Shown in pieces: positions 6,547 through 61,668 of a stretch of DNA of 64,000 bases. This DNA comes from a candidate division WWE3 bacterium. GTDB lineage: Bacteria > Patescibacteriota > WWE3 > UBA101185 > UBA10185. Positions within the stretch are counted from its first letter, which is position 1. Every line of letters begins with the position of its first letter. The position numbers and the translations under genes were made by a program. The notes under the pieces were generated by a model that saw only the letters and a program-made list of their open reading frames with translations, did no database searches and had not been told where the DNA came from. Location: positions 622,428 to 686,427 of the forward strand of contig JBPOHV010000001.1 of assembly GCA_052035175.1 (NCBI GenBank), read 5' to 3'.

Positions 6547-6607
6547 TGAAGCTCCCTTAGATTTCTGACCTATGATATGCTATCCAAAATCTGTAAGGAG
6601 GCTGCCA

Positions 6608-6691
6608 ATGAAAAAGAAATTCTTGATTGGATTTCTGATAGTCATAGGCATTGGGCTTATAATTAAAAAAGCCCTAGACTATGACATCTGA
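6608..6691 (+). CDS. 27-aa hydrophobic micropeptide (MKKKFLIGFLIVIGIGLIIKKALDYDI)
   Basis: A perfect SD (TAAGGAGG) lies 7 nt upstream, and a strong terminator follows immediately downstream. Confidence 0.3.
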   Translation: MKKKFLIGFLIVIGIGLIIKKALDYDI

Positions 6692-6697
6692 AGCCAC

Positions 6698-6723
6698 GCA
6701 CCGAGGCATAAATGCCTCGGTGC
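6698..6723 (+). terminator. rho-independent terminator
   Basis: GCACCGAGGCA-TAAA-TGCCTCGGTGC, an 11-bp stem, then GGATTTGTT. Confidence 0.6.
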
Positions 6724-6847
6724 GGATTTGTTAGATTAAAGGTGATAAAATAAGGCCGACGAAGTACAGTCTTGGGTATACGAGCTTACTCATCCCGCTT
6801 CGCGGGATTGCGTTTCCTCGTATAACCCCTCGCGCACTTCGTGCTCT

Positions 6848-25306: not shown

Positions 25307-27250
25307 ATGAAAATACCTGTTGAATGGTTATCTGAATACATAAAAATAAATAAGACGCCAAAAGAACTAGCGCAAGACTTTACAGCGGTTGGATTGATGC
25401 TTGATAAGTATGATGAAAAAAACAGTGTACTCGATCTAGAACACCGCATGGATCGCTCTGATTGGCTTTCTATATTAGGGTGTGCTAGAGATTTGGCAGC
25501 ATATAACAAAACTGAACTAAGATATCCAAAAGCTTACTTAGCAGATTTACCAAAGATTCCTGAAAGTGAGCAAGTGCAAATAAATGTAGAAGGAACTGAT
25601 TTTGTTAATAGATTTTATACACGTATTTTCAAAAACATAAAAATACAAGATTCTCCAGATTGGCTGAAAAAGCGATTGGAAGCATATGGTTTACCTTCTA
25701 TAAATAATATTGTAGATATAACCAATTATGTAATGGTCGAATACGGACAACCAATGCACGCACACGACTTGGACAAAATGCAAACAAAAGAGATTACTTT
25801 CAGACACGCAAAACCTGGTGAAAAGATTGTAACCTTGCTAGGACAAGAGATAGAACTCGACTCTAATACTTGGATAACAACAAACAACAATTTACCTACA
25901 GGCGTAGCTGGAATTGTAGGTGGAAAACAAGTAGCAATAGATGCGACAACAAAAAATATTGTTTTGGATTCTGGAAATTATAATCAAACAACAATTAGGC
26001 ATACATCAAGAAACATTAAAATAACCAATGAAACTGTTTTGCGCACAGATAAGTTTTTGCACGCGCACAACAATGAACTTGCAATAAAAAGAGCAACTCA
26101 GCTCATACTAGAACTGGCAGGCGGGGACGCTTTTGAAAATTTCGACTATTATCCAACGAGGCAAGGCCTGACCAAGCAACAGCTTAGATATAGCAGACTA
26201 GTAAAAATTGGCGGTATGCATTTTTCAGACGCTGAAATTGAAGATATTTTAACGAGATTAGAATACAAAGTATTATCAAAAAAAGAAGCTGAAGATAATA
26301 CAAAGTTATGGGAACTCGAAGTACCTTATTTTAGAACAGACGTCCAAGTCGAAGACGACATTGTCGCAGATATATTGCGAATAAACGATTACAACAAAAT
26401 ACCAGCCGCATCGATAGACATGGCACCACCATCAGAGATAACACCTGCGGCATATAAATTTGAACAACTATTAAAAGATGAATTGGTAAAATTAGGTCTT
26501 GACGAACATATAACTGCCCCAATGATACCTATCGACAAACTTAACACCGAGCAAGTAACGATTTTGAGTAGCCTGAGCGCAGACAGACAAGGTCTGAGAA
26601 CAAATGTATATACTACGTTGAAAGCTGCTATCGACACTTATAAAAAGCACAATTTACATGAAATAGGGGTATTTGAAATAGGAAATACTTTTCACAAAAC
26701 TGGGAATGGTTCAAAACACGAAGACTATTTAGAAAAAAAGGAAGTAGAAATAATATACGAAAATACTCAGATGAACGTGAAAGAAAACTCAATCAAACTG
26801 AGACAAATTTTAGCAAGCTTATTAACTACTTTGGGAATCGCTAACTACTATCTAGAAAAAGAAGGTCAAAATGTGTGTATAAAATCACAAAGTCAAAATA
26901 CTTTGGGAATACTCACACATACGCACGCTACCTTGGCGATTGATACGTTGCTACTTGAGTATAAAAAACCAAGGTTAGCTATTTCTGAAATGCAAAACTT
27001 TACCAACTTTGATATTTCTTTGGTTATGAATCTAGAGCAACAATTTGGTGCGATATATAAATCTATTAAAGATTTTGATCAAAATATTGTTGATGTCGTT
27101 GTTGCTGAAGACTACATTGGTGCAAATGTCGAACAAGGCAAAAAAGCTGTGTTGGTTCAAATTACGCATAAATTAGCTGATACTTCAGAAGCACGAGTTA
27201 AGCTTTTGGAACATTTGGTTAAAACTTTTAATATTTCTCACCGCAGTTAA
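25307..27250 (+). CDS. pheT: phenylalanyl-tRNA synthetase beta subunit (short form)
   Basis: Its position after pheS, the B3/B4 and B5-like regions, and its length of 647 aa. Confidence 0.85.
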   Translation: MKIPVEWLSEYIKINKTPKELAQDFTAVGLMLDKYDEKNSVLDLEHRMDRSDWLSILGCARDLAAYNKTELRYPKAYLADLPKIPESEQVQINVEGTDFVNRFYTRIFKNIKIQDSPDWLKKRLEAYGLPSINNIVDITNYVMVEYGQPMHAHDLDKMQTKEITFRHAKPGEKIVTLLGQEIELDSNTWITTNNNLPTGVAGIVGGKQVAIDATTKNIVLDSGNYNQTTIRHTSRNIKITNETVLRTDKFLHAHNNELAIKRATQLILELAGGDAFENFDYYPTRQGLTKQQLRYSRLVKIGGMHFSDAEIEDILTRLEYKVLSKKEAEDNTKLWELEVPYFRTDVQVEDDIVADILRINDYNKIPAASIDMAPPSEITPAAYKFEQLLKDELVKLGLDEHITAPMIPIDKLNTEQVTILSSLSADRQGLRTNVYTTLKAAIDTYKKHNLHEIGVFEIGNTFHKTGNGSKHEDYLEKKEVEIIYENTQMNVKENSIKLRQILASLLTTLGIANYYLEKEGQNVCIKSQSQNTLGILTHTHATLAIDTLLLEYKKPRLAISEMQNFTNFDISLVMNLEQQFGAIYKSIKDFDQNIVDVVVAEDYIGANVEQGKKAVLVQITHKLADTSEARVKLLEHLVKTFNISHRS

Positions 27251-27273
27251 GGACCTGGTCAGACCTGGTCTAG
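27247..27273. repeat. 27-bp inverted-repeat end (left) TTAAGGACCTGGTCAGACCTGGTCTAG
   Basis: Perfect reverse complement of 28593-28619. It overlaps the pheT stop codon. Confidence 0.9.
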
Positions 27274-27377
27274 TGTTCATAAATATGTTATCGTCTCATC
27301 GTAGGTTTTGTGAGCAGCTAATCCCGCGGCCCGGGAAGTAGCTGTCTTAATCAACACAAGACCTGCAACACCAGATG

Positions 27378-27440
27378 GGAACAGTAGCTTCAAAGTGACG
27401 TTTGTCGCACCTCCCATCTGGTTTTTCTTTTTTTTGCACT
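27378..27440 (+). terminator. rho-independent terminator (likely end of the thrS-pheT operon)
   Basis: CCAGATGGGA ... TCCCATCTGG 10-bp stem followed by TTTTTCTTTTTTTTG. Confidence 0.55.
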
Positions 27441-27578
27441 TCCGAGACAATCATAGTAATATCCCAACAGCTAAAGCAGTGGCGAGATATGTGTAGGCGA
27501 AAGCCAGCAAGCCGCGAATCGCGGAACACTAATCTCCCTCTGCTTTAGCACACTCGTTTAAAGGTTAAACCTTCATAT

Positions 27579-27607
27579 TTGCTTATTTTAAAAGTTTTGT
27601 ATAGAAT
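27579..27607 (+). promoter_or_regulatory. putative sigma70 promoter for the tRNA-like gene at 27621
   Basis: TTGCTT, 17-nt spacer, TAGAAT. Confidence 0.4.
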
Positions 27608-27620
27608 GCACTCCATCGCC

Positions 27621-27692
27621 GGAGATGTAGCTCAATTGGGAGAGCACCGAGCTTTTGCTCGTAGGTTGCAGGTTCGAGTCCCGCCATTTCCA
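27621..27692 (+). tRNA. tRNA-like gene, anticodon region CTTTTG (Lys-TTT-like), apparent 6-nt anticodon loop, no encoded CCA
   Basis: Acceptor GGAGATG/CATTTCC pairs at all 7 positions with one G-U, and the D-arm GCTC-AATTGGGA-GAGC is canonical. The T-arm GCAGG-TTCGAGT-CCCGC has one mismatch. The anticodon stem CCGAG/CTCGT leaves only 6 loop nucleotides. Confidence 0.45.
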
Positions 27693-27960
27693 TTCGAGTG
27701 CACAACAGGTAGAACGTCTCCTATCATGTTGTGCGCTCGTGTAGGGCTGACAAGGTGATGCGCTCGCATCATTAACCTTGTCAGCCCTCCTCCAAATTCT
27801 TCACATACACCACTTACGTGATACTATTCAAACATTAAAATGTGCAAGCGGGAAACTATATGCACATACGGAGTGAAGCTTAGAAATGCTCGGTCAGGCA
27901 TCGGGGATTTTATTCTAGCTTCACTCCTTTGCTTTCTAAACACCCAACTTTAAGATTTGA

Positions 27961-27989
27961 TTGACCTATAGTTGTGGTGTTGTTATACT
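27961..27989 (+). promoter_or_regulatory. near-consensus sigma70 promoter
   Basis: TTGACC, 17-nt spacer, TATACT. Confidence 0.5.
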
Positions 27990-27996
27990 AGCGTTT

Positions 27997-28085
27997 GATA
28001 AACTGTGCCCAAGAAACTTGGACACAGTATCGTTGGGGCATTGCTTCGCCGCAAGGCACAGGAAAAGCAATGCCCCCATTTTCTT
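27997..28085 (+). ncRNA. candidate small RNA or structured tRNA leader
   Basis: Directly downstream of the consensus promoter. Ends in GGGGCATTGC...GCAATGCCCC (10-bp stem) followed by CATTTTCTTT, which abuts the tRNA at 28087. Confidence 0.3.
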
Positions 28086-28086
28086 T

Positions 28087-28160
28087 AGGGATGTGGCGCA
28101 ATTGGAAGACGCGTCGGACTTATAATCCGAATTTTGCGGGTTCGAAGCCCGTCATCCCTA
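28087..28160 (+). tRNA. candidate tRNA-Ile(TAT), no encoded CCA
   Basis: Acceptor AGGGATG/CATCCCT, anticodon stem TCGGA/TCCGA with loop CTTATAA, T-arm GCGGG-TTCGAAG-CCCGT. The D-arm is irregular (3-bp stem, 11-nt loop). Confidence 0.5.
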
Positions 28161-28261
28161 TATAGCCTACAAGAACAAACGTCTCTCTTGTAGACTTACT
28201 GGATGCATTTGGTGATAGCCTCCTTCTATCTTCTAATGCATCCAGTTTATTCAAATGTTAT

Positions 28262-28288
28262 TTAAGGACCTGGTCAGACCTGGTCTAA
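28262..28288. repeat. internal direct copy of the 27-bp repeat (TTAAGGACCTGGTCAGACCTGGTCTAA)
   Basis: 26 of 27 positions identical to the left end copy. Confidence 0.9.
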
Positions 28289-28400
28289 TATTTATAAATC
28301 CCACGTCTTAGGTTAATAGCTTATTTTTTTTAATAGATTGTTTTTTTAATGGACAAGTTTGCCTTTTGTTCGGGTACTTAGTATAATCCAAGACATAAAA

Positions 28401-28471
28401 GGCGGTATAGCTCAGCGGGAGAGCACCGGGCGACAACCCGGAAGTCCGTGGTCCGACTCCACGTGCCGCCA
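28401..28471 (+). tRNA. tRNA-like gene, anticodon region CGACAA, apparent 6-nt loop, unusual T-loop TCCGACT, no encoded CCA
   Basis: Acceptor GGCGGTA/TGCCGCC, D-arm GCTC-AGCGGGA-GAGC, anticodon stem CCGGG/CCCGG enclosing 6 nt, T-stem CGTGG/CCACG. Confidence 0.45.
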
Positions 28472-28592
28472 ATCCGGAGTATATTATGCGGTCGTAACCA
28501 ATCGTTCCGCTTATATACTCTAGAGTAGAGTGAACTAAGGGCCTTACCTAAGGCGTTCGCCTTTAGTTCACTCTAATTTTCTTTATTGGAAA

Positions 28593-28619
28593 CTAGACCA
28601 GGTCTGACCAGGTCCTTAA
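28593..28619. repeat. 27-bp inverted-repeat end (right), exact reverse complement of 27247-27273
   Basis: CTAGACCAGGTCTGACCAGGTCCTTAA. Abuts the PBP1A stop codon. Confidence 0.9.
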
Positions 28620-28620
28620 A

Positions 28621-31497: not shown

Positions 31498-33522
31498 ATG
31501 ATGATTAATCTAAAAGCTTCTGTTTCAAAATTAGCGGGTGTAGGACCCAAATATCTTAAATTATTGGAAAAACTGTATATATATACCACCGAAGACTTTT
31601 TGTACTATTTTCCTTTTAGATACGATGACTTTACCAATATCTCTACGATAGATAATTGGCAAAACGGTCAAACACTCACGACATCTGCCCAAATTACAAG
31701 CATAACAAATGTAATTTCAAAAAACGGCAAAAGACTGACAATCGCACAAATACAAGATAATACAGCTAAGGGTAGAGTAGTGTGGTTTAATCAACATTTT
31801 TTGATAAAAGTTTTGAAAAAAAATATAACTTACAATTTTTCTGGAAAAGTTGCAGAGTTCAACGAAAAAAACACATTAGTTAATCCGATATTTGAGTCGG
31901 TAGACAATCAAAGTATTCACACTCAAGGGTTAGTACCAATTTACCCAGAAACTGAAGGCGTGTCATCAAAATGGCTTCGCACTAAAATAAAAGACTTAGT
32001 AACCAAAATAGATACTGACTCACTCGATGAGTATCTTCCTGAACATTTATTAAATGAATACGATTTGCTAGATATAAATACAGCAATCAAAGATATCCAT
32101 TTTCCACAAAGTCACATTCACGCACAAAAAGCAAAAGACCGACTTGCGTTCGAAGAAATCTTTTTTGAACTTTTAAATGTTGAATACCGAAAGTATGAAT
32201 TGGAAAACAAACATAAGGGTATTAAATTAAATATAAATCAAACATATATCAACGAGTTTATAGCTACATTACCTTTTGAACTAACATCAAGCCAAAATGA
32301 CGCATGTGATCATTTACTGAGATTGATGCAAATAAATAAACCAATGAACTCATTGCTCGCTGGAGACGTAGGCAGCGGAAAAACAATAGTAGCTGCTATA
32401 TGTGCATATGCCGCATATACAAGTGGCTATCGGACTGTATATTTGGCGCCGACAGAGATCTTGGCCAACCAACACTTTCAAACATTTTCAAATTTGTTTA
32501 CCAAACTAGGTATCAAACTACAACTAGTTACTAGCAACACAAAAGAAAAAACATTTGATGCAGACATGTTGATCGGAACGCATGCACTTTTGTACAAAGA
32601 AGATATTTATAAAAAAATTGGATTTGTTGTAATCGATGAACAACATAGATTTGGTGTAGAACAAAGACATAAAATCTCGAAAGTATTAACAGCAAACGAA
32701 ACGATACCACATGTACTTAGTATGACTGCAACACCAATACCGCGTACGTTAGCTTTGACGCTTTTCGGCGATTTGGATATCTGCACGTTAGACGTTTTAC
32801 CAAATAAAGATAAAAAAATAATTACAAAAGCAGCAACACATACACAAAGAACCACTATTTATACTTGGATAAAAAACAGCAACAAAAGAGCCTTTATTGT
32901 TTGCCCGTTTATAGAAGTGTCTGATCAACCTAATTTGGAAAATGTAAAAGCAGCGCAAGTAGAATACGAAACACTCAAAAAAACGTTTTTTAAAAACCAT
33001 AATGTTGGTTTACTTCACGGCAAGCTCAAACCAGAAGAAAAAACTAAGATAATCGAAGATTTTACACAAGGTAATATTCAAATCTTGGTTTCTACGCCTG
33101 TTATAGAAGTAGGCATAGATATTCCTGACGCTGAAATTATTGTTATCGAAAGTGCAGAGAGATACGGCCTTGCGAGTTTACACCAGCTCCGCGGCCGTGT
33201 AGGCCGCGGAGCCAAAACCGGCTATTGCTTTGCAATAATGAGCGATAACTCTACAACAGGCTATTCACGACTTAAACACCTAGAAACAATAGATAAAGGC
33301 ATAGAACTCGCCGAAATAGATATGCAGACACGCGGCAGGGGAGACATCTTCGGAACAATACAACACGGATTCAAAAGCTTTAAACTAGCAGACTTATCTG
33401 ATATAAATCTGTTAGAGAAAGCAAAAAAAGCTGCAATTGCTACATTTGAACAAATAGATACTTTGCCCAAGCTCAAAGCCAAGCTCGAAAATAAATACAG
33501 CAAGTTTATTTCTTCAAATTAG
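31498..33522 (+). CDS. recG: ATP-dependent DNA helicase RecG
   Basis: Wedge domain plus helicase motifs (LLAGDVGSGKT, DEQHRFGV, LHQLRGRVGRG). Confidence 0.9.
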   Translation: MMINLKASVSKLAGVGPKYLKLLEKLYIYTTEDFLYYFPFRYDDFTNISTIDNWQNGQTLTTSAQITSITNVISKNGKRLTIAQIQDNTAKGRVVWFNQHFLIKVLKKNITYNFSGKVAEFNEKNTLVNPIFESVDNQSIHTQGLVPIYPETEGVSSKWLRTKIKDLVTKIDTDSLDEYLPEHLLNEYDLLDINTAIKDIHFPQSHIHAQKAKDRLAFEEIFFELLNVEYRKYELENKHKGIKLNINQTYINEFIATLPFELTSSQNDACDHLLRLMQINKPMNSLLAGDVGSGKTIVAAICAYAAYTSGYRTVYLAPTEILANQHFQTFSNLFTKLGIKLQLVTSNTKEKTFDADMLIGTHALLYKEDIYKKIGFVVIDEQHRFGVEQRHKISKVLTANETIPHVLSMTATPIPRTLALTLFGDLDICTLDVLPNKDKKIITKAATHTQRTTIYTWIKNSNKRAFIVCPFIEVSDQPNLENVKAAQVEYETLKKTFFKNHNVGLLHGKLKPEEKTKIIEDFTQGNIQILVSTPVIEVGIDIPDAEIIVIESAERYGLASLHQLRGRVGRGAKTGYCFAIMSDNSTTGYSRLKHLETIDKGIELAEIDMQTRGRGDIFGTIQHGFKSFKLADLSDINLLEKAKKAAIATFEQIDTLPKLKAKLENKYSKFISSN

Positions 33523-33595: not shown

Positions 33596-34147
33596 ATGTT
33601 ACCAAGTTTGCGAATTACATCTGGAATAGTAAAGAACAAAAAACTTACTGCACCAAAGATAGAAGGTTATCGGGCCGTGCAAGACAAAGCTAAGTTGGCT
33701 GTGTTTTCAATATTGGAAGACACAATACTTGACGCCAAATGCTTAGATTTATATGCGGGTAGTGGAAGTATGGGGCTCGAAGCTTTGAGCCGTGGAGCAG
33801 CCTGGTGCGATTTTGTAGATCAAAGCTATGAAGCAATAGGAGCAATCAGGCAAAATATTGCTGATTGCAAATTTGAAAACAAAAGCTTAACTCACCATAC
33901 TGATGCCGTTAAATACGCCGCTAATACCAGTGAAAAATATGACGTTATCTTTTGTGATCCGTTTTATAAAGATACAGCCCACATTTTTTTATTAAAGAAT
34001 ATAAGTGAAATTTTGACTGAAAATGGTGTTTTAATATTTTTTCATGGTGGATTAGACTTCACCAAGCTTTTAAAAGATAATTCATTGAAAGTGGTAGATG
34101 ATAGAAGGTTTGGAAAGAGTTTTGTCACCTTTTTAAAGTGCAATTAG
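33596..34147 (+). CDS. rsmD: 16S rRNA (guanine966-N2)-methyltransferase
   Basis: LDLYAGSGSMGLEALSRGA SAM-binding motif and a DPPY-like FCDPFYK. Confidence 0.8.
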   Translation: MLPSLRITSGIVKNKKLTAPKIEGYRAVQDKAKLAVFSILEDTILDAKCLDLYAGSGSMGLEALSRGAAWCDFVDQSYEAIGAIRQNIADCKFENKSLTHHTDAVKYAANTSEKYDVIFCDPFYKDTAHIFLLKNISEILTENGVLIFFHGGLDFTKLLKDNSLKVVDDRRFGKSFVTFLKCN

Positions 34148-34235
34148 AAATACACTTTTTGTAAAGTTTGTTTTGTGGGTGGGCCAAGAATATGCATAAA
34201 GCACGATTCTTGGCCCACGCCACGTCACCAGGGTT

Positions 34236-34385
34236 GGGTTAGGACTTTTTTTCTGGGTCCTTTTCCCCTGGTGACGTTGTTTCGCCATGCGCGCCTTTGG
34301 GGGCGAGCATGGCCATAACACCCAAGAAAAGCACGAATCCTCCTAATAGAAGGAGGACCGTACAAACGGGTTGGATAATATCCAT
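34236..34385 (-). CDS. 49-aa hydrophobic small peptide A (MDIIQPVCTVLLLLGGFVLFLGVMAMLAPKGAHG...)
   Basis: AAGGAGA SD about 4 nt upstream and a single TM helix. Lies in a GC-rich palindromic insert and is a paralogue of peptide B. Confidence 0.35.
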
Positions 34386-34594
34386 GGCTCTCCTTTGTCC
34401 CGCCGAAGCGGGACAAGATAAATATTTTTGATAGAAATAGTATAACCTATAGCTAGTTTTTTGTAAAATTGAAAGATTTAATCAATAAAGGATCAATGGC
34501 CAAGTGAGGTTTCGCAAAAAAATGCGACCTTCAAATGGCCATTTGAGTCAGGGGGGAACGATTTTGTTTATGTTTCTTGCAACATAAACAAATA

Positions 34595-34616
34595 GGAATA
34601 GTCCTAGGACTATTCC
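34595..34616. repeat. perfect 22-bp palindrome GGAATAGTCCTAGGACTATTCC
   Basis: Exactly self-complementary. Lies just downstream (minus-strand sense) of peptide B. Confidence 0.8.
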
Positions 34617-34647
34617 CAGCCCCCCACAGAAAAAAAACCGATGCCCA

Positions 34648-34788
34648 TTAGGACCTCCTTTTATCCTTGGGGGCAATATGAATGCTCCAATGAGCAAACA
34701 CCGCCCCCAAAGTGAGGCCGCCGAAGGCGGCCAAAAAAAAGATAACAGCGGCGAGTTGCTCGCCGAAGTTATTTGCCATGGTATCCAT
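34648..34788 (-). CDS. 46-aa hydrophobic small peptide B (MDTMANNFGEQLAAVIFFLAAFGGLTLGAVFAHWSIHIAPKDKRRS)
   Basis: Strong SD AAAGGAGG 4 nt upstream. TM helix with a GG motif and an APK motif shared with peptide A. Its stop overlaps a second SD-preceded 12-codon ORF (TAATG). Confidence 0.35.
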   Translation of the reverse strand: MDTMANNFGEQLAAVIFFLAAFGGLTLGAVFAHWSIHIAPKDKRRS

Positions 34789-34912
34789 GGCACCTCCTTT
34801 TCATAAATCACACGACCTAACGTGACTTATGAATTAGTGGAATTATTATTGATATTAGCATCGGGTACAGATGTATGGAAGGTCAGTCCTCGATGAGGAC
34901 TGACCTTCGGCT

Positions 34913-34939
34913 TGACTGACATAAGTCCTCATGTATAAT
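34913..34939 (+). promoter_or_regulatory. sigma70 promoter for rpmF (near-leaderless transcript)
   Basis: TTGACT, 15-nt spacer, extended -10 TGTATAAT. The ATG lies about 10 nt after the -10. Preceded by the perfect hairpin GAAGGTCAGTCCTC-GAT-GAGGACTGACCTTC. Confidence 0.5.
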
Positions 34940-34949
34940 GGGCTGCAGT

Positions 34950-35096
34950 ATGCCAGTACCAAAAAGAAAACATTCATTAGGAAGAGTCAGACGCAAAAGA
35001 CAAGAAAAAATGCGTAAGTCAGCTGTAATAGCAGTTCAAGACAAAAAAAGCGGAACTTACCATAGACCTCACGTAGAAGAAAAAGTTAAAATCTAA
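34950..35096 (+). CDS. rpmF: ribosomal protein L32
   Basis: [48 protein letters not shown] matches the bL32 pattern (MAVPKRKTS...HRV). Under 60 aa, so absent from the ORF track. Confidence 0.75.
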
Positions 35097-60110: not shown

Positions 60111-60216
60111 ACCTAACAGTTTAAATACCACCCTATAGCTTTCTTATATATTTTTGATACAATCCCTATCATATATTCACTATGGGGATCATCGTCCCCG
60201 AAGGAGAAAAATAACG

Positions 60217-60867
60217 ATGAAAAAATTGATTGTTTTGGTTCTGCTTTTCGCAACTATGGTTGCGTTAGCAGGAATGCCCTCCCTTACGGGAGGAGCGACG
60301 GGCGGTGAACCCACCCCGACAAATGTTCCAAATTTGCCACCAACACCAACTCTGGTACCGGCGAATGGGTTGGAGCCAAAATCTTTTTTGGCGTTGGTCC
60401 AAAATGGACCAACCTTGGTGCCCCCAGTCCCACCGACTGGAACACCAACGGCAACTCCGACTGATCTACCAACCCCCACCCCAGCACCTTATCAAGAAAC
60501 AAAGTGCGGGCCGTTGCCAGAAGGCATTATTGACGGGTTTTATGATCCGGAATGGACGTCTATCTGGGCACAAAGCAATGCCATCGGCTGGACAGGGCCA
60601 GCTAGGATTGATGCCATGGAAAATGAATTCACTGTCCCAGGGGGGGATGCGGCAGTGTTTATTCTGACAGACCATGGTGCCATCTTCTGGGATCAAACCC
60701 AGGTCGATGGCCATGACCAAATGTCTGCGTGCCATACCAATATGGCACCAGATGAAAACACAGTGAACAAATGGGCACAAGATGCCCAAACAAATACTGG
60801 GGCTCCCAATATCTGGATTGTCACCATCATTGACGGTGACCTCCACGCGGTATTGTGGGCCCCATAG
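60217..60867 (+). CDS. secreted Pro/Thr-linker protein in a GC-rich island (copy 1)
   Basis: SD AAGGAG, a signal peptide and a PTPT linker. Paralogue of 61020-61595. The longer listed ORF start is upstream of the SD. Confidence 0.5.
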   Translation: MKKLIVLVLLFATMVALAGMPSLTGGATGGEPTPTNVPNLPPTPTLVPANGLEPKSFLALVQNGPTLVPPVPPTGTPTATPTDLPTPTPAPYQETKCGPLPEGIIDGFYDPEWTSIWAQSNAIGWTGPARIDAMENEFTVPGGDAAVFILTDHGAIFWDQTQVDGHDQMSACHTNMAPDENTVNKWAQDAQTNTGAPNIWIVTIIDGDLHAVLWAP

Positions 60868-60884
60868 TAAAAATATGTTAGGCA

Positions 60885-60942
60885 AAAAAGACCTTGTCGA
60901 GCCGATAGCGATATCGCATGACGAGGTCTTTTGCGTTGTATA
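60885..60942 (+). terminator. 58-bp repeat containing a terminator hairpin (copy 1)
   Basis: AAGACCTTGTC ... GACGAGGTCTT stem then TTGCGTTG. Near-identical to 61610-61668. Confidence 0.6.
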
Positions 60943-61019
60943 CATAAAAGCAAACATTGATATAATCCCTACTAATAATTCACGTGTGAGTACAATTACT
61001 TGCACAAAAGGAGCAAAAG

Positions 61020-61595
61020 ATGAAGAAGTCTTATTTAGTTCTGCTGATACCATTAGCAATGGTGATCTTAGCAGGCATGCCGGCCCTTACGAGCCAGGCA
61101 CAAGGTGGCGAAGCTACCCCTTCACCAGAACAACCCACAAAAAGTTTTCTAGTGTTCATGCCTGCAGTAATGCGGGCAGACACATATCAAGAAAGTTTTT
61201 GCGGGCCAGTGGAAAGCGGAGGCGTAATTTTGAATTACGAATCCAATTTCCCGGCGCTGCAAGCGCCAGAAGATCCCCAGTACACCCACATCGTTGGGTG
61301 GGCCAGTTGGTCTTATGTAACATATCAAGGCCAAAGTTGGTTGATTCCAGAAGGGGATGTTGCTGTTTTCATTACTCAGGCGAACCAGTCACTTGAGTTT
61401 TTTAACATGCAACTCGTTGAAGGACATGCTTTTATGGAAGCGTGTGCCGCTACAAAGTTCCCGCCTGGGCCAAGTCTCCTAGCATGGGGAGATAAAGCCA
61501 GAACTGGGACTGGCGTTGGCGGGCTGCTTTGGCTCATCACAATCACTGAAAGTGGTGAGCTAAAGGTTGATCCCTGGCCAGGGATCGTGCAGTAA
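61020..61595 (+). CDS. secreted protein in a GC-rich island (copy 2, diverged paralogue)
   Basis: Signal peptide MKKSYLVLLIPLAMVILAG. Shares CGP..G.I, PEGD.AVFI and EGHAFMEAC blocks with copy 1 and the same TTGATAYAATCCC promoter-like upstream sequence. Confidence 0.5.
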   Translation: MKKSYLVLLIPLAMVILAGMPALTSQAQGGEATPSPEQPTKSFLVFMPAVMRADTYQESFCGPVESGGVILNYESNFPALQAPEDPQYTHIVGWASWSYVTYQGQSWLIPEGDVAVFITQANQSLEFFNMQLVEGHAFMEACAATKFPPGPSLLAWGDKARTGTGVGGLLWLITITESGELKVDPWPGIVQ

Positions 61596-61609
61596 ATCTT
61601 TATGGCGCG

Positions 61610-61668
61610 AAAAAAGACCTCGTCGAGCCGATAGCAATATCGCATGACGAGGTCTTTTGCGTTGTATA
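61610..61668 (+). terminator. 58-bp repeat containing a terminator hairpin (copy 2)
   Basis: AAAGACCTCGTC ... GACGAGGTCTTT, an 11-bp perfect stem, then TTGCGTTG. Confidence 0.6.

Follow-up and report, generated by a model that had tools for sequence, protein, structure and literature searches.

A probable lineage-specific cassette of orphan small membrane-protein genes with structured transcripts in a candidate division WWE3 bacterium

The DNA studied here is a stretch of 64,000 nucleotides (nt) from a candidate division WWE3 bacterium (the window, for short), and the element in question is the 790-nt spacer between its rsmD and rpmF genes (positions 34148-34937). We consider this spacer to be probably a lineage-specific accessory cassette of a candidate phyla radiation (CPR, Patescibacteria) genome of roughly 0.93 Mb, carrying orphan genes for small single-pass membrane proteins with structured mRNAs. 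Three minus-strand genes for such proteins, A, B and C, are encoded in the insert. Comparison with a relative, R, in which this insert occupies the corresponding rsmD–rpmF site, showed that A, B and C are under coding constraint, as judged from their substitutions and indels. In both lineages, the predicted folding of the transcripts goes far beyond what their composition or the encoded proteins would call for.

The insert and its three genes

The window has the gene order recG (31498-33522), rsmD (33596-34147), the 790-nt gap, rpmF, nusB, an ACP-like gene, rnc and rpsP, all on the plus strand. The insert lies between the rsmD stop (34147) and the promoter and start of rpmF, and the same site is occupied in this way only in R. 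This relative is represented jointly by three contigs. The closest RsmD homologue (P0002, 86% identity) was found on the short metagenome contig L085, and L089, which covers the full gap, and L090 were reached through members of the L32 90% cluster. An identical stretch, including the spacer, is present on Logan contig L001. In relatives with 59-72% identical NusB (L005/6, L011, L013, L015 and L017), the order recG–rsmD–rpmF–nusB is kept with a gap of only 47-123 nt, and L009 and L086/7 are likewise without the insert. Nowhere else in the window, which covers 64 kb of a genome of roughly 925 kb, did any part of it recur, nor did it in the 87 fetched loci that remain once L001, L085, L089 and L090 are set aside. 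A blastn search against phage and plasmid collections yielded nothing beyond one 32-nt chance match. A first-pass annotation of the window had proposed an insert at this place, together with a synteny check; the proposal holds, with short gaps or unrelated inserts in the more distant relatives and the same insert in R.

Other orphan reading frames were seen at the rsmD–rpmF junction elsewhere. L002 (6579-7151) and L014 (4184-4666) have distantly homologous orphan open reading frames (ORFs) of 190 and 160 amino acids (BLASTP E = 2e-6), and L088 (3614-4753) has four small orphan ORFs on the plus strand; none of these junction ORFs had a Pfam match. The different orphan inserts in other lineages mark the junction as a recurrent site of lineage-specific insertion.

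The abrupt shift to a GC-rich composition, noticed at first pass, was borne out: the guanine plus cytosine (GC) fraction is 0.444 in the spacer versus 0.367 in the window, with 200-nt peaks of 0.52-0.53 inside the spacer. The spacer holds five perfect hairpins of at least 11 bp, whereas 1000 shuffles averaged 0.005 and never exceeded 1; the other 63 kb of the window hold 12. All inverted repeats listed earlier are present, with coordinates within 1 bp. The 13-bp-arm repeat at 34179-34218 (arms 34179-34191 and 34206-34218) and the perfect 22-bp palindrome at 34595-34616 stand as described. The repeats given as 34223-34276 and 34564-34591 exist, but their arms are 12 bp instead of 11 bp (34222-34233 and 34266-34277; 34563-34574 and 34581-34592). 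The perfect 14-bp stem is also there, but one base away from its given position (arms 34878-34891 and 34895-34908). A match to a known non-coding RNA family was looked for in Rfam, as the first-pass annotation had suggested, and nothing in the spacer reached the gathering threshold. The best sub-threshold match had 20.9 bits against a gathering score of 50 (E = 0.28). Scanning for transfer RNA (tRNA) and transfer-messenger RNA genes revealed none in the spacer.

Gene A (34239..34385, minus strand) encodes 48 amino acids, MDIIQPVCTVLLLLGGFVLFLGVMAMLAPKGAHGETTSPGEKDPEKKS, and not the 49 first assigned to it. Its Shine–Dalgarno sequence (SD) is AGGAG at 34394..34390, and the maximum 19-residue Kyte–Doolittle hydropathy of the peptide is 2.68. 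Gene B (34648..34788, minus strand) encodes 46 amino acids, MDTMANNFGEQLAAVIFFLAAFGGLTLGAVFAHWSIHIAPKDKRRS, in agreement with the earlier reading; it is preceded by the SD AGGAGG at 34798..34793 and has a 44-residue orthologue in R. Gene C (34548..34648, minus strand) is coupled to B via TAATG. It is frameshifted here and has an intact 36-residue orthologue in R. The overlap of the B stop with a mini-ORF of 12 codons (34648..34610) had been noticed before and is real, but the mini-ORF is the N-terminus of C and not a separate mini-gene. Each of the three peptides has one 19-residue hydrophobic stretch with a Kyte–Doolittle value of 2.2-3.1, and B and C have basic C-termini. AAGGAGG stands 5-6 nt ahead of the ATGs of B and of the mini-ORF, and AAGGAGA stands 4 nt ahead of the ATG of A. 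AAGGAGG occurs ten times on both strands of the window, three of these in the spacer, and such a motif lies upstream of only a handful of the larger ORFs. The SDs are strong, as had been claimed, and the motif is otherwise rare in the window.

In R, gene A has 48 codons without any indel and a GTG start behind AAGGAGG. Gene B encodes 44 amino acids and differs from the window by a 6-nt in-frame indel. Gene C of R encodes 36 amino acids, MGIATLFCGGLILVGVVLVVAVFVYVARNINKVVPP, behind AGGAGGTCCTAAAATG; it starts 2 nt past the B stop and differs by a 9-nt in-frame indel. The differences at the first, second and third codon positions were 8/6/9 for A, 13/6/23 for B and 6/4/13 for C, resulting in a total of 27/16/45 (chi-square against a uniform distribution, p = 6.7e-4). 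Codons 33-48 of A, which encode its hydrophilic tail, carry three synonymous changes and no non-synonymous one. Apart from a single-base frameshift at a T8 run in C, the indels inside the ORFs measure 6 and 9 nt, versus 16, 2, 4, 4, 1, 2, 2, 12 and 11 nt in the non-coding parts. The transmembrane segments are only 47-60% identical to R at the nucleotide level, as compared with about 84% in the flanks. The frames kept in R and the coding-type substitutions support the earlier view of A and B as real genes. Both peptides are conserved in this relative; lack of conservation in any relative, together with absence of the insert from transcripts, had been named at first pass as an outcome that would speak against the reading.

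Automatic gene finding gave a different picture of the spacer. No gene was called in it on the Logan contig, and the ORF track called two spurious ORFs instead (34548-34811 and 34225-34416). These had been suspected to be spurious from the start, and neither is open in R. The 87-residue track ORF is a chimera, with the true C frame as its last 27 codons; its remainder and the 63-residue ORF are closed in R, which identifies both as spurious. The suggestion that A and B are paralogous was not upheld. BLASTP found no alignment between them at E values up to 100, and their DNA similarity is confined to the SD and start context, AAAGGAG.GCCATGGATA, scoring 26 versus a shuffle maximum of 31. The MD, GG and APK motifs said to be common to A and B are literally present, but the GG of B and the APK of both peptides are lost in R.

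As sequenced, C reads MGIGFFSVGGWE and then meets a stop (34648..34610), truncated by the frameshift at the T8 homopolymer (34630..34637, minus strand; A8 on the plus strand). With T9, or after a −1 slip, it would read MGIGFFFCGGLGIVLGLFLFVYVARNINKIVPP, a peptide of 33 amino acids ending at 34548. Slipping by −1 on U UUU UUU would bring back the conserved C sequence, and a three-way structure closed by GGGGGG...CCCCCC is predicted to begin 5 nt past the run. An ordinary inactivating mutation, a homopolymer assembly error, and slippage-dependent or phase-variable expression fit the data equally well. As for assembly error, the independent Logan contig L001 shows the identical run. Homopolymer-dependent expression is known from phase-variable contingency loci, transcriptional slippage, and −1 ribosomal frameshifting as in dnaX. 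C resembles these systems in being out of frame exactly at T8/U8 with strong structure 5 nt downstream. It differs from them in that C is intact in R, where the position carries no homopolymer, and in that mutation or assembly error explains C equally well. Since R is without the homopolymer, slippage is not ancestral, and any such mechanism would be recent. Full-length C would be made here only after slippage at T8, or not at all.

Transcript structure and expression signals

Folding of the minus-strand RNA relative to shuffled sequences gave z-scores of −10.5 for the A unit and −9.1 for the B–C unit of the window, and of −9.2 and −9.7, respectively, for those of R. The minus-strand RNA of the B–C unit is 24 kcal/mol more stable than its plus-strand RNA; this difference points to G·U pairs, and hence to structure at the RNA level. 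Each ORF was also compared with versions of itself in which synonymous codons had been shuffled, so that neither the protein nor the codon composition changed; the native sequence was the more stable one for all three genes in both lineages (z between −2.8 and −5.0). In a codon-aware alignment, the hairpins of the window and R coincide in position despite the 47-60% identity. GGCCGCC-UUC-GGCGGCC in the window corresponds to UGCUGCC-CCA-GGUAGCA in R, with two double compensatory pairs.

In the predicted folds, most palindromes are mRNA hairpins: 5′ stems, an anti-SD/SD stem, an AUG hairpin, stems inside coding sequences, and terminators. They are not mobile-element scars or a non-coding RNA gene. 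The C coding sequence has two predicted hairpins (34563..34616, minus strand): a 12-bp stem at 34563-34592, which R retains, and the 22-bp palindrome at 34595-34616, whose sequence is not found in R, where another hairpin stands in its place. Several of the palindromes stressed at first pass, including the 22-bp one, are not conserved as sequence and lie inside coding sequence.

For the B–C unit, we read by eye a candidate promoter, TTCCAT-17-TAATAT with an extended −10, TGCTAATAT (34852..34880, minus strand), which lies in a block 97% identical to R (34845-34884). A 5′ stem-loop follows (34793..34840, minus strand), and its basal extension is predicted to pair an upstream anti-SD with the SD of B. 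In the window, CC.CU would pair with the SD GG.GG around a 13-bp stem; in R, a stem of wholly different sequence stands at the same place, and ACUUUC would pair with GGAGGU. The start codon is held in an 8-bp hairpin, UGCCAUGG-AUA-CCAUGGCA (34774..34792, minus strand), which is 100% identical in R. Both lineages thus combine predicted SD sequestration by an anti-SD with an AUG in an 8-bp hairpin. Over its first 14 codons, B shows no nucleotide difference between the window and R, and positions 34745-34784 are 97% identical. After the C stop, a long imperfect hairpin with a U-rich tail (34495..34543, minus strand) is the probable terminator of the unit. Its stems are identical in R, which differs only in the loop, and it lies within the block of the insert that is best conserved (34457-34576, 90-97% identity).

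Gene A has a promoter-like site, TTTACA-17-TATACT (34439..34467, minus strand), whose −10 is conserved in R (TTCCCA-17-TATACT). Directly upstream of the A SD stands a hairpin, UUGUCCCGC-UUCG-GCGGGACAA (34395..34416, minus strand); in R, the stem is kept via a C-to-U change giving a G·U pair, and the loop is different. The 3′ end of A carries two hairpins in tandem (34222-34277 and 34179-34218, together 34179..34277), with z-scores of −9.0 and −8.5 on the two strands. The 34222-34277 hairpin encloses the A stop codon, and its stem is kept imperfectly in R. The 34179-34218 hairpin faces the convergent rsmD; its stem is 100% identical in R, where indels are confined to the loop.

The perfect 14-bp hairpin (34878..34908) lies between the divergent B and rpmF promoters and may be an insulator, a terminator or an operator. 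In R, it is lengthened symmetrically by a self-complementary 12-nt insertion. The right-hand border of the insert is formed by the rpmF promoter TTGACT-16-TATAAT and the start codon at 34950 (34912..34952, plus strand), which are 100% conserved in R; the promoter site ends 10 nt ahead of the rpmF ATG. The −10 TATAAT, whose last base is 34939, is followed at 34950 by the conserved ATG (MPVPKRK) without an SD, and rpmF may be leaderless or nearly so. The 52-residue gene call for rpmF from 34938 is probably four codons too long.

A fourth SD-preceded membrane peptide was found far from the cassette, at 6596-6724 of the window. It consists of TAAGGAGG and then a 27-residue ORF at 6608-6691 (MKKKFLIGFLIVIGIGLIIKKALDYDI), with a perfect 13-bp hairpin (6697-6724) directly after the ORF and just upstream of tRNA-Pro. 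This ORF is more structured than its synonymous permutations (z −3.1). Its architecture is like that of A and B, and its codon usage is of the native low-GC kind.

Proposed role and rival explanations

In the arrangement that we propose, unit 1 would run from the candidate extended −10 promoter through the 5′ stem-loop to B, then to C, coupled through TAATG, and end in the long terminator hairpin. Unit 2 would consist of the promoter TTTACA/TATACT, the 5′ hairpin, A, and the two 3′ hairpins in common with the convergent rsmD. From the predicted folds, the most likely effect of the structure would be to hold back translation and to make the transcripts more stable: translation may be kept low until the mRNA is remodelled, and the hydrophobic peptides would be probably dosage-sensitive or toxic. 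We take A, B and C for genuine genes of orphan small membrane peptides, perhaps toxins, with mRNAs that are probably under selection for dense structure.

Several results weigh against this interpretation. Gene A alone shows no third-position excess (8/6/9), and its SD is unpaired in the predicted fold of the window. When the minimum free energy structure of the window was evaluated in R, the B–C unit had 5 compensatory pairs, changed on both sides, versus 36 broken ones (5-8 versus 33-36 overall), and the covariation is thin because only two lineages are at hand. Perfect stems of at least 11 bp number five in the window versus one in R, and template switching or another mutational process could contribute to them. 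The consensus promoter scan did not report the candidate B–C promoter. Finally, none of the resources searched held a homologue that would give A, B or C a function. Exact look-ups of A, B and the 87-residue ORF found no record, word-indexed homologue searches with A and B had no match, and scanning viral and metagenome contigs with the concatenated peptides had none either. An exhaustive phmmer search of A against 1.84 billion representatives returned only two repetitive artefacts. A, B and C of either lineage had no match in Pfam or NCBIfam at E values up to 1-5, including the type I toxin families Hok/Gef, Ldr, Fst, TisB, Ibs, TxpA and AapA, and PADLOC and PHROGs gave no credible family.

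A type I-toxin-like role is our leading functional guess, a tentative one, and harmless accessory peptides are about equally likely. The spacer may possibly be a bona fide type I toxin–antitoxin locus, or more than one, in which A, B and/or C would be membrane-damaging toxins and a cis or adjacent antisense RNA would block translation or trigger decay. The stable, structured mRNA might then, no less tentatively, be a long-lived toxin template. With lengths below 60 amino acids (A 48, B 46, C 33-36), one hydrophobic helix each, and basic C-termini on B and C, the peptides resemble the toxins of hok/Sok, AapA/IsoA, Fst/RNAII, TisB/IstR-1, TxpA/RatA and BsrG/SR4, which have polar or basic tails. 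A narrow taxonomic distribution and fast sequence evolution are further likenesses, as is a highly structured mRNA with a 5′ stem-loop, SD/anti-SD pairing and a terminator stem-loop, predicted here for B with its sequestered SD and occluded AUG in both lineages. The translational coupling of B to C is reminiscent of mok/hok. T1TAdb finds type I toxins by just such mRNA determinants, namely a 5′ stem-loop, SD/anti-SD pairing and a terminator stem-loop (PMC8594479). No synonymous site differs within the first 14 codons of B, as expected of an RNA–RNA target site; the narrow spread among lineages, at a variable genomic spot, and the apparent frameshift inactivation of one gene (C) also favor toxins. 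Unlike in the known systems, no antisense RNA gene could be recognised in the cassette, and no homology to a toxin family was found. The sole plus-strand σ70-like promoter candidate in the insert (34822-34849) is lost in R, so that none is conserved in both lineages according to a consensus scan, with non-canonical promoters outside its reach. Nor does R keep the 11-nt and 14-nt stretches in which the A and B–C transcripts are complementary, and for this reason we rejected an action of the A mRNA in trans on B–C. With three different peptides, of which two share an operon, the layout is unusual, as is the CPR host. According to PMC12390103, reports of type I systems come to date only from Proteobacteria, Firmicutes and Tenericutes, which leaves the CPR without a precedent there, and our literature search found no paper reporting a type I system in the CPR. 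The boldest version, a first type I-like module of the CPR with homologue-free membrane toxins gated by selected intragenic hairpins and with C switched on only by U8 slippage, we consider improbable. Harmless small membrane proteins, such as transporter or envelope accessory subunits, regulators, or episymbiosis factors, are a similarly uncertain choice; the hairpins would then serve only stability and termination. The coding evidence is equal to that behind our preferred reading, and among the bacterial small membrane proteins known so far, toxins are a minority. The membrane peptide at 6608-6691 with its hairpin at 6697-6724 suggests that such an architecture may be the general way in which this organism expresses small membrane proteins. 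KdpF, CydX, AcrZ, MgrB and MgtS are regulatory or accessory small membrane proteins, and A, B and C are like them in having a single helix, 27-50 amino acids, short and often unannotated ORFs and their own ribosome-binding sites. Genes of this type are usually beside or co-regulated with the complex that they serve and conserved across a genus or family, whereas A, B and C, located between rsmD and rpmF, have no membrane partner close by and occur in two close lineages only, and their mRNAs are unusually structured and, by prediction, partly occluded for translation. The occlusion of the B SD and AUG suggests repression over plain stabilisation. Absence of the cassette from all but the closest relative argues against a core function, and the very fast divergence of the transmembrane segments argues against a specific protein partner.

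Two further readings were considered. A non-coding structured RNA or a palindromic DNA element, with incidental ORFs, is very unlikely. It could account for the extreme folding z-scores on both strands, for loopless perfect palindromes such as 34595-34616, which are not optimal RNA hairpins, and for the failure of gene callers to find anything in the spacer on the Logan contig. The codon-periodic substitutions and the in-frame indels inside the ORFs contradict it, and the reading frames are conserved while the 22-bp palindrome and the GC-rich B stems are not. There is also no Rfam match, no further copy in the window or among the other 87 loci, and no phage or plasmid match besides the 32-nt chance one. 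Among elements of this class, an operator array was considered, and an integron attC-like reading and one resembling repetitive extragenic palindromic (REP) or miniature inverted-repeat transposable elements (MITE) were rejected: the stems are perfect and all different in sequence, and no other copies lie in the window or in those loci. Translated leader peptides or attenuators that regulate a neighbour such as rpmF–nusB are hardly credible. The small ORFs do stand ahead of hairpins, and the early B coding sequence contains a terminator-like hairpin with a U-tract (34765-34749) that is conserved in R; the U-tract is accounted for by codons for Phe, Ile and Leu in the transmembrane helix. We rejected this reading on gene orientation, as the ORFs lie on the strand opposite to rsmD and rpmF, no larger minus-strand gene is found downstream, and A ends facing the 3′ end of rsmD. 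Moreover, rpmF has its own conserved promoter immediately upstream.

Other features of the window and wider meaning

Besides the cassette, the window holds a 24-nt repeat, AAGGACCTGGTCAGACCTGGTCTA, at 2040-2063, 27249-27272, 28264-28287 and 28594-28617. Three copies are exact and one has two mismatches; both orientations occur, and shuffles gave none. The copies flank tRNA genes and gene ends, and the repeat could be a terminator, processing or recombination motif. The 1.37-kb intergenic tRNA cluster at 27250-28620 contains six further perfect hairpins of 11-14 bp with loops of 18-36 nt. Two tRNAs of the cluster have abnormal anticodon loops according to ARAGORN (27621-27692, 'tt'; 28401-28471, 'ac'), and Rfam scores both as tRNA. 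A GC-rich stretch (up to 0.57) of about 1.4 kb at 60176-61650 has overlapping ORFs on both strands, with SD-preceded starts at 60216 and 61019. It had no Rfam match and may be another foreign or accessory segment.

Gene callers systematically miss small membrane proteins, and the three real genes found here in a CPR genome of 0.9 Mb illustrate this. The locus combines protein-coding and RNA-structure constraints on one sequence, with hairpins that persist through about 50% divergence. If the peptides are toxic and controlled by RNA, type I toxin–antitoxin systems would extend to a superphylum in which none are known.

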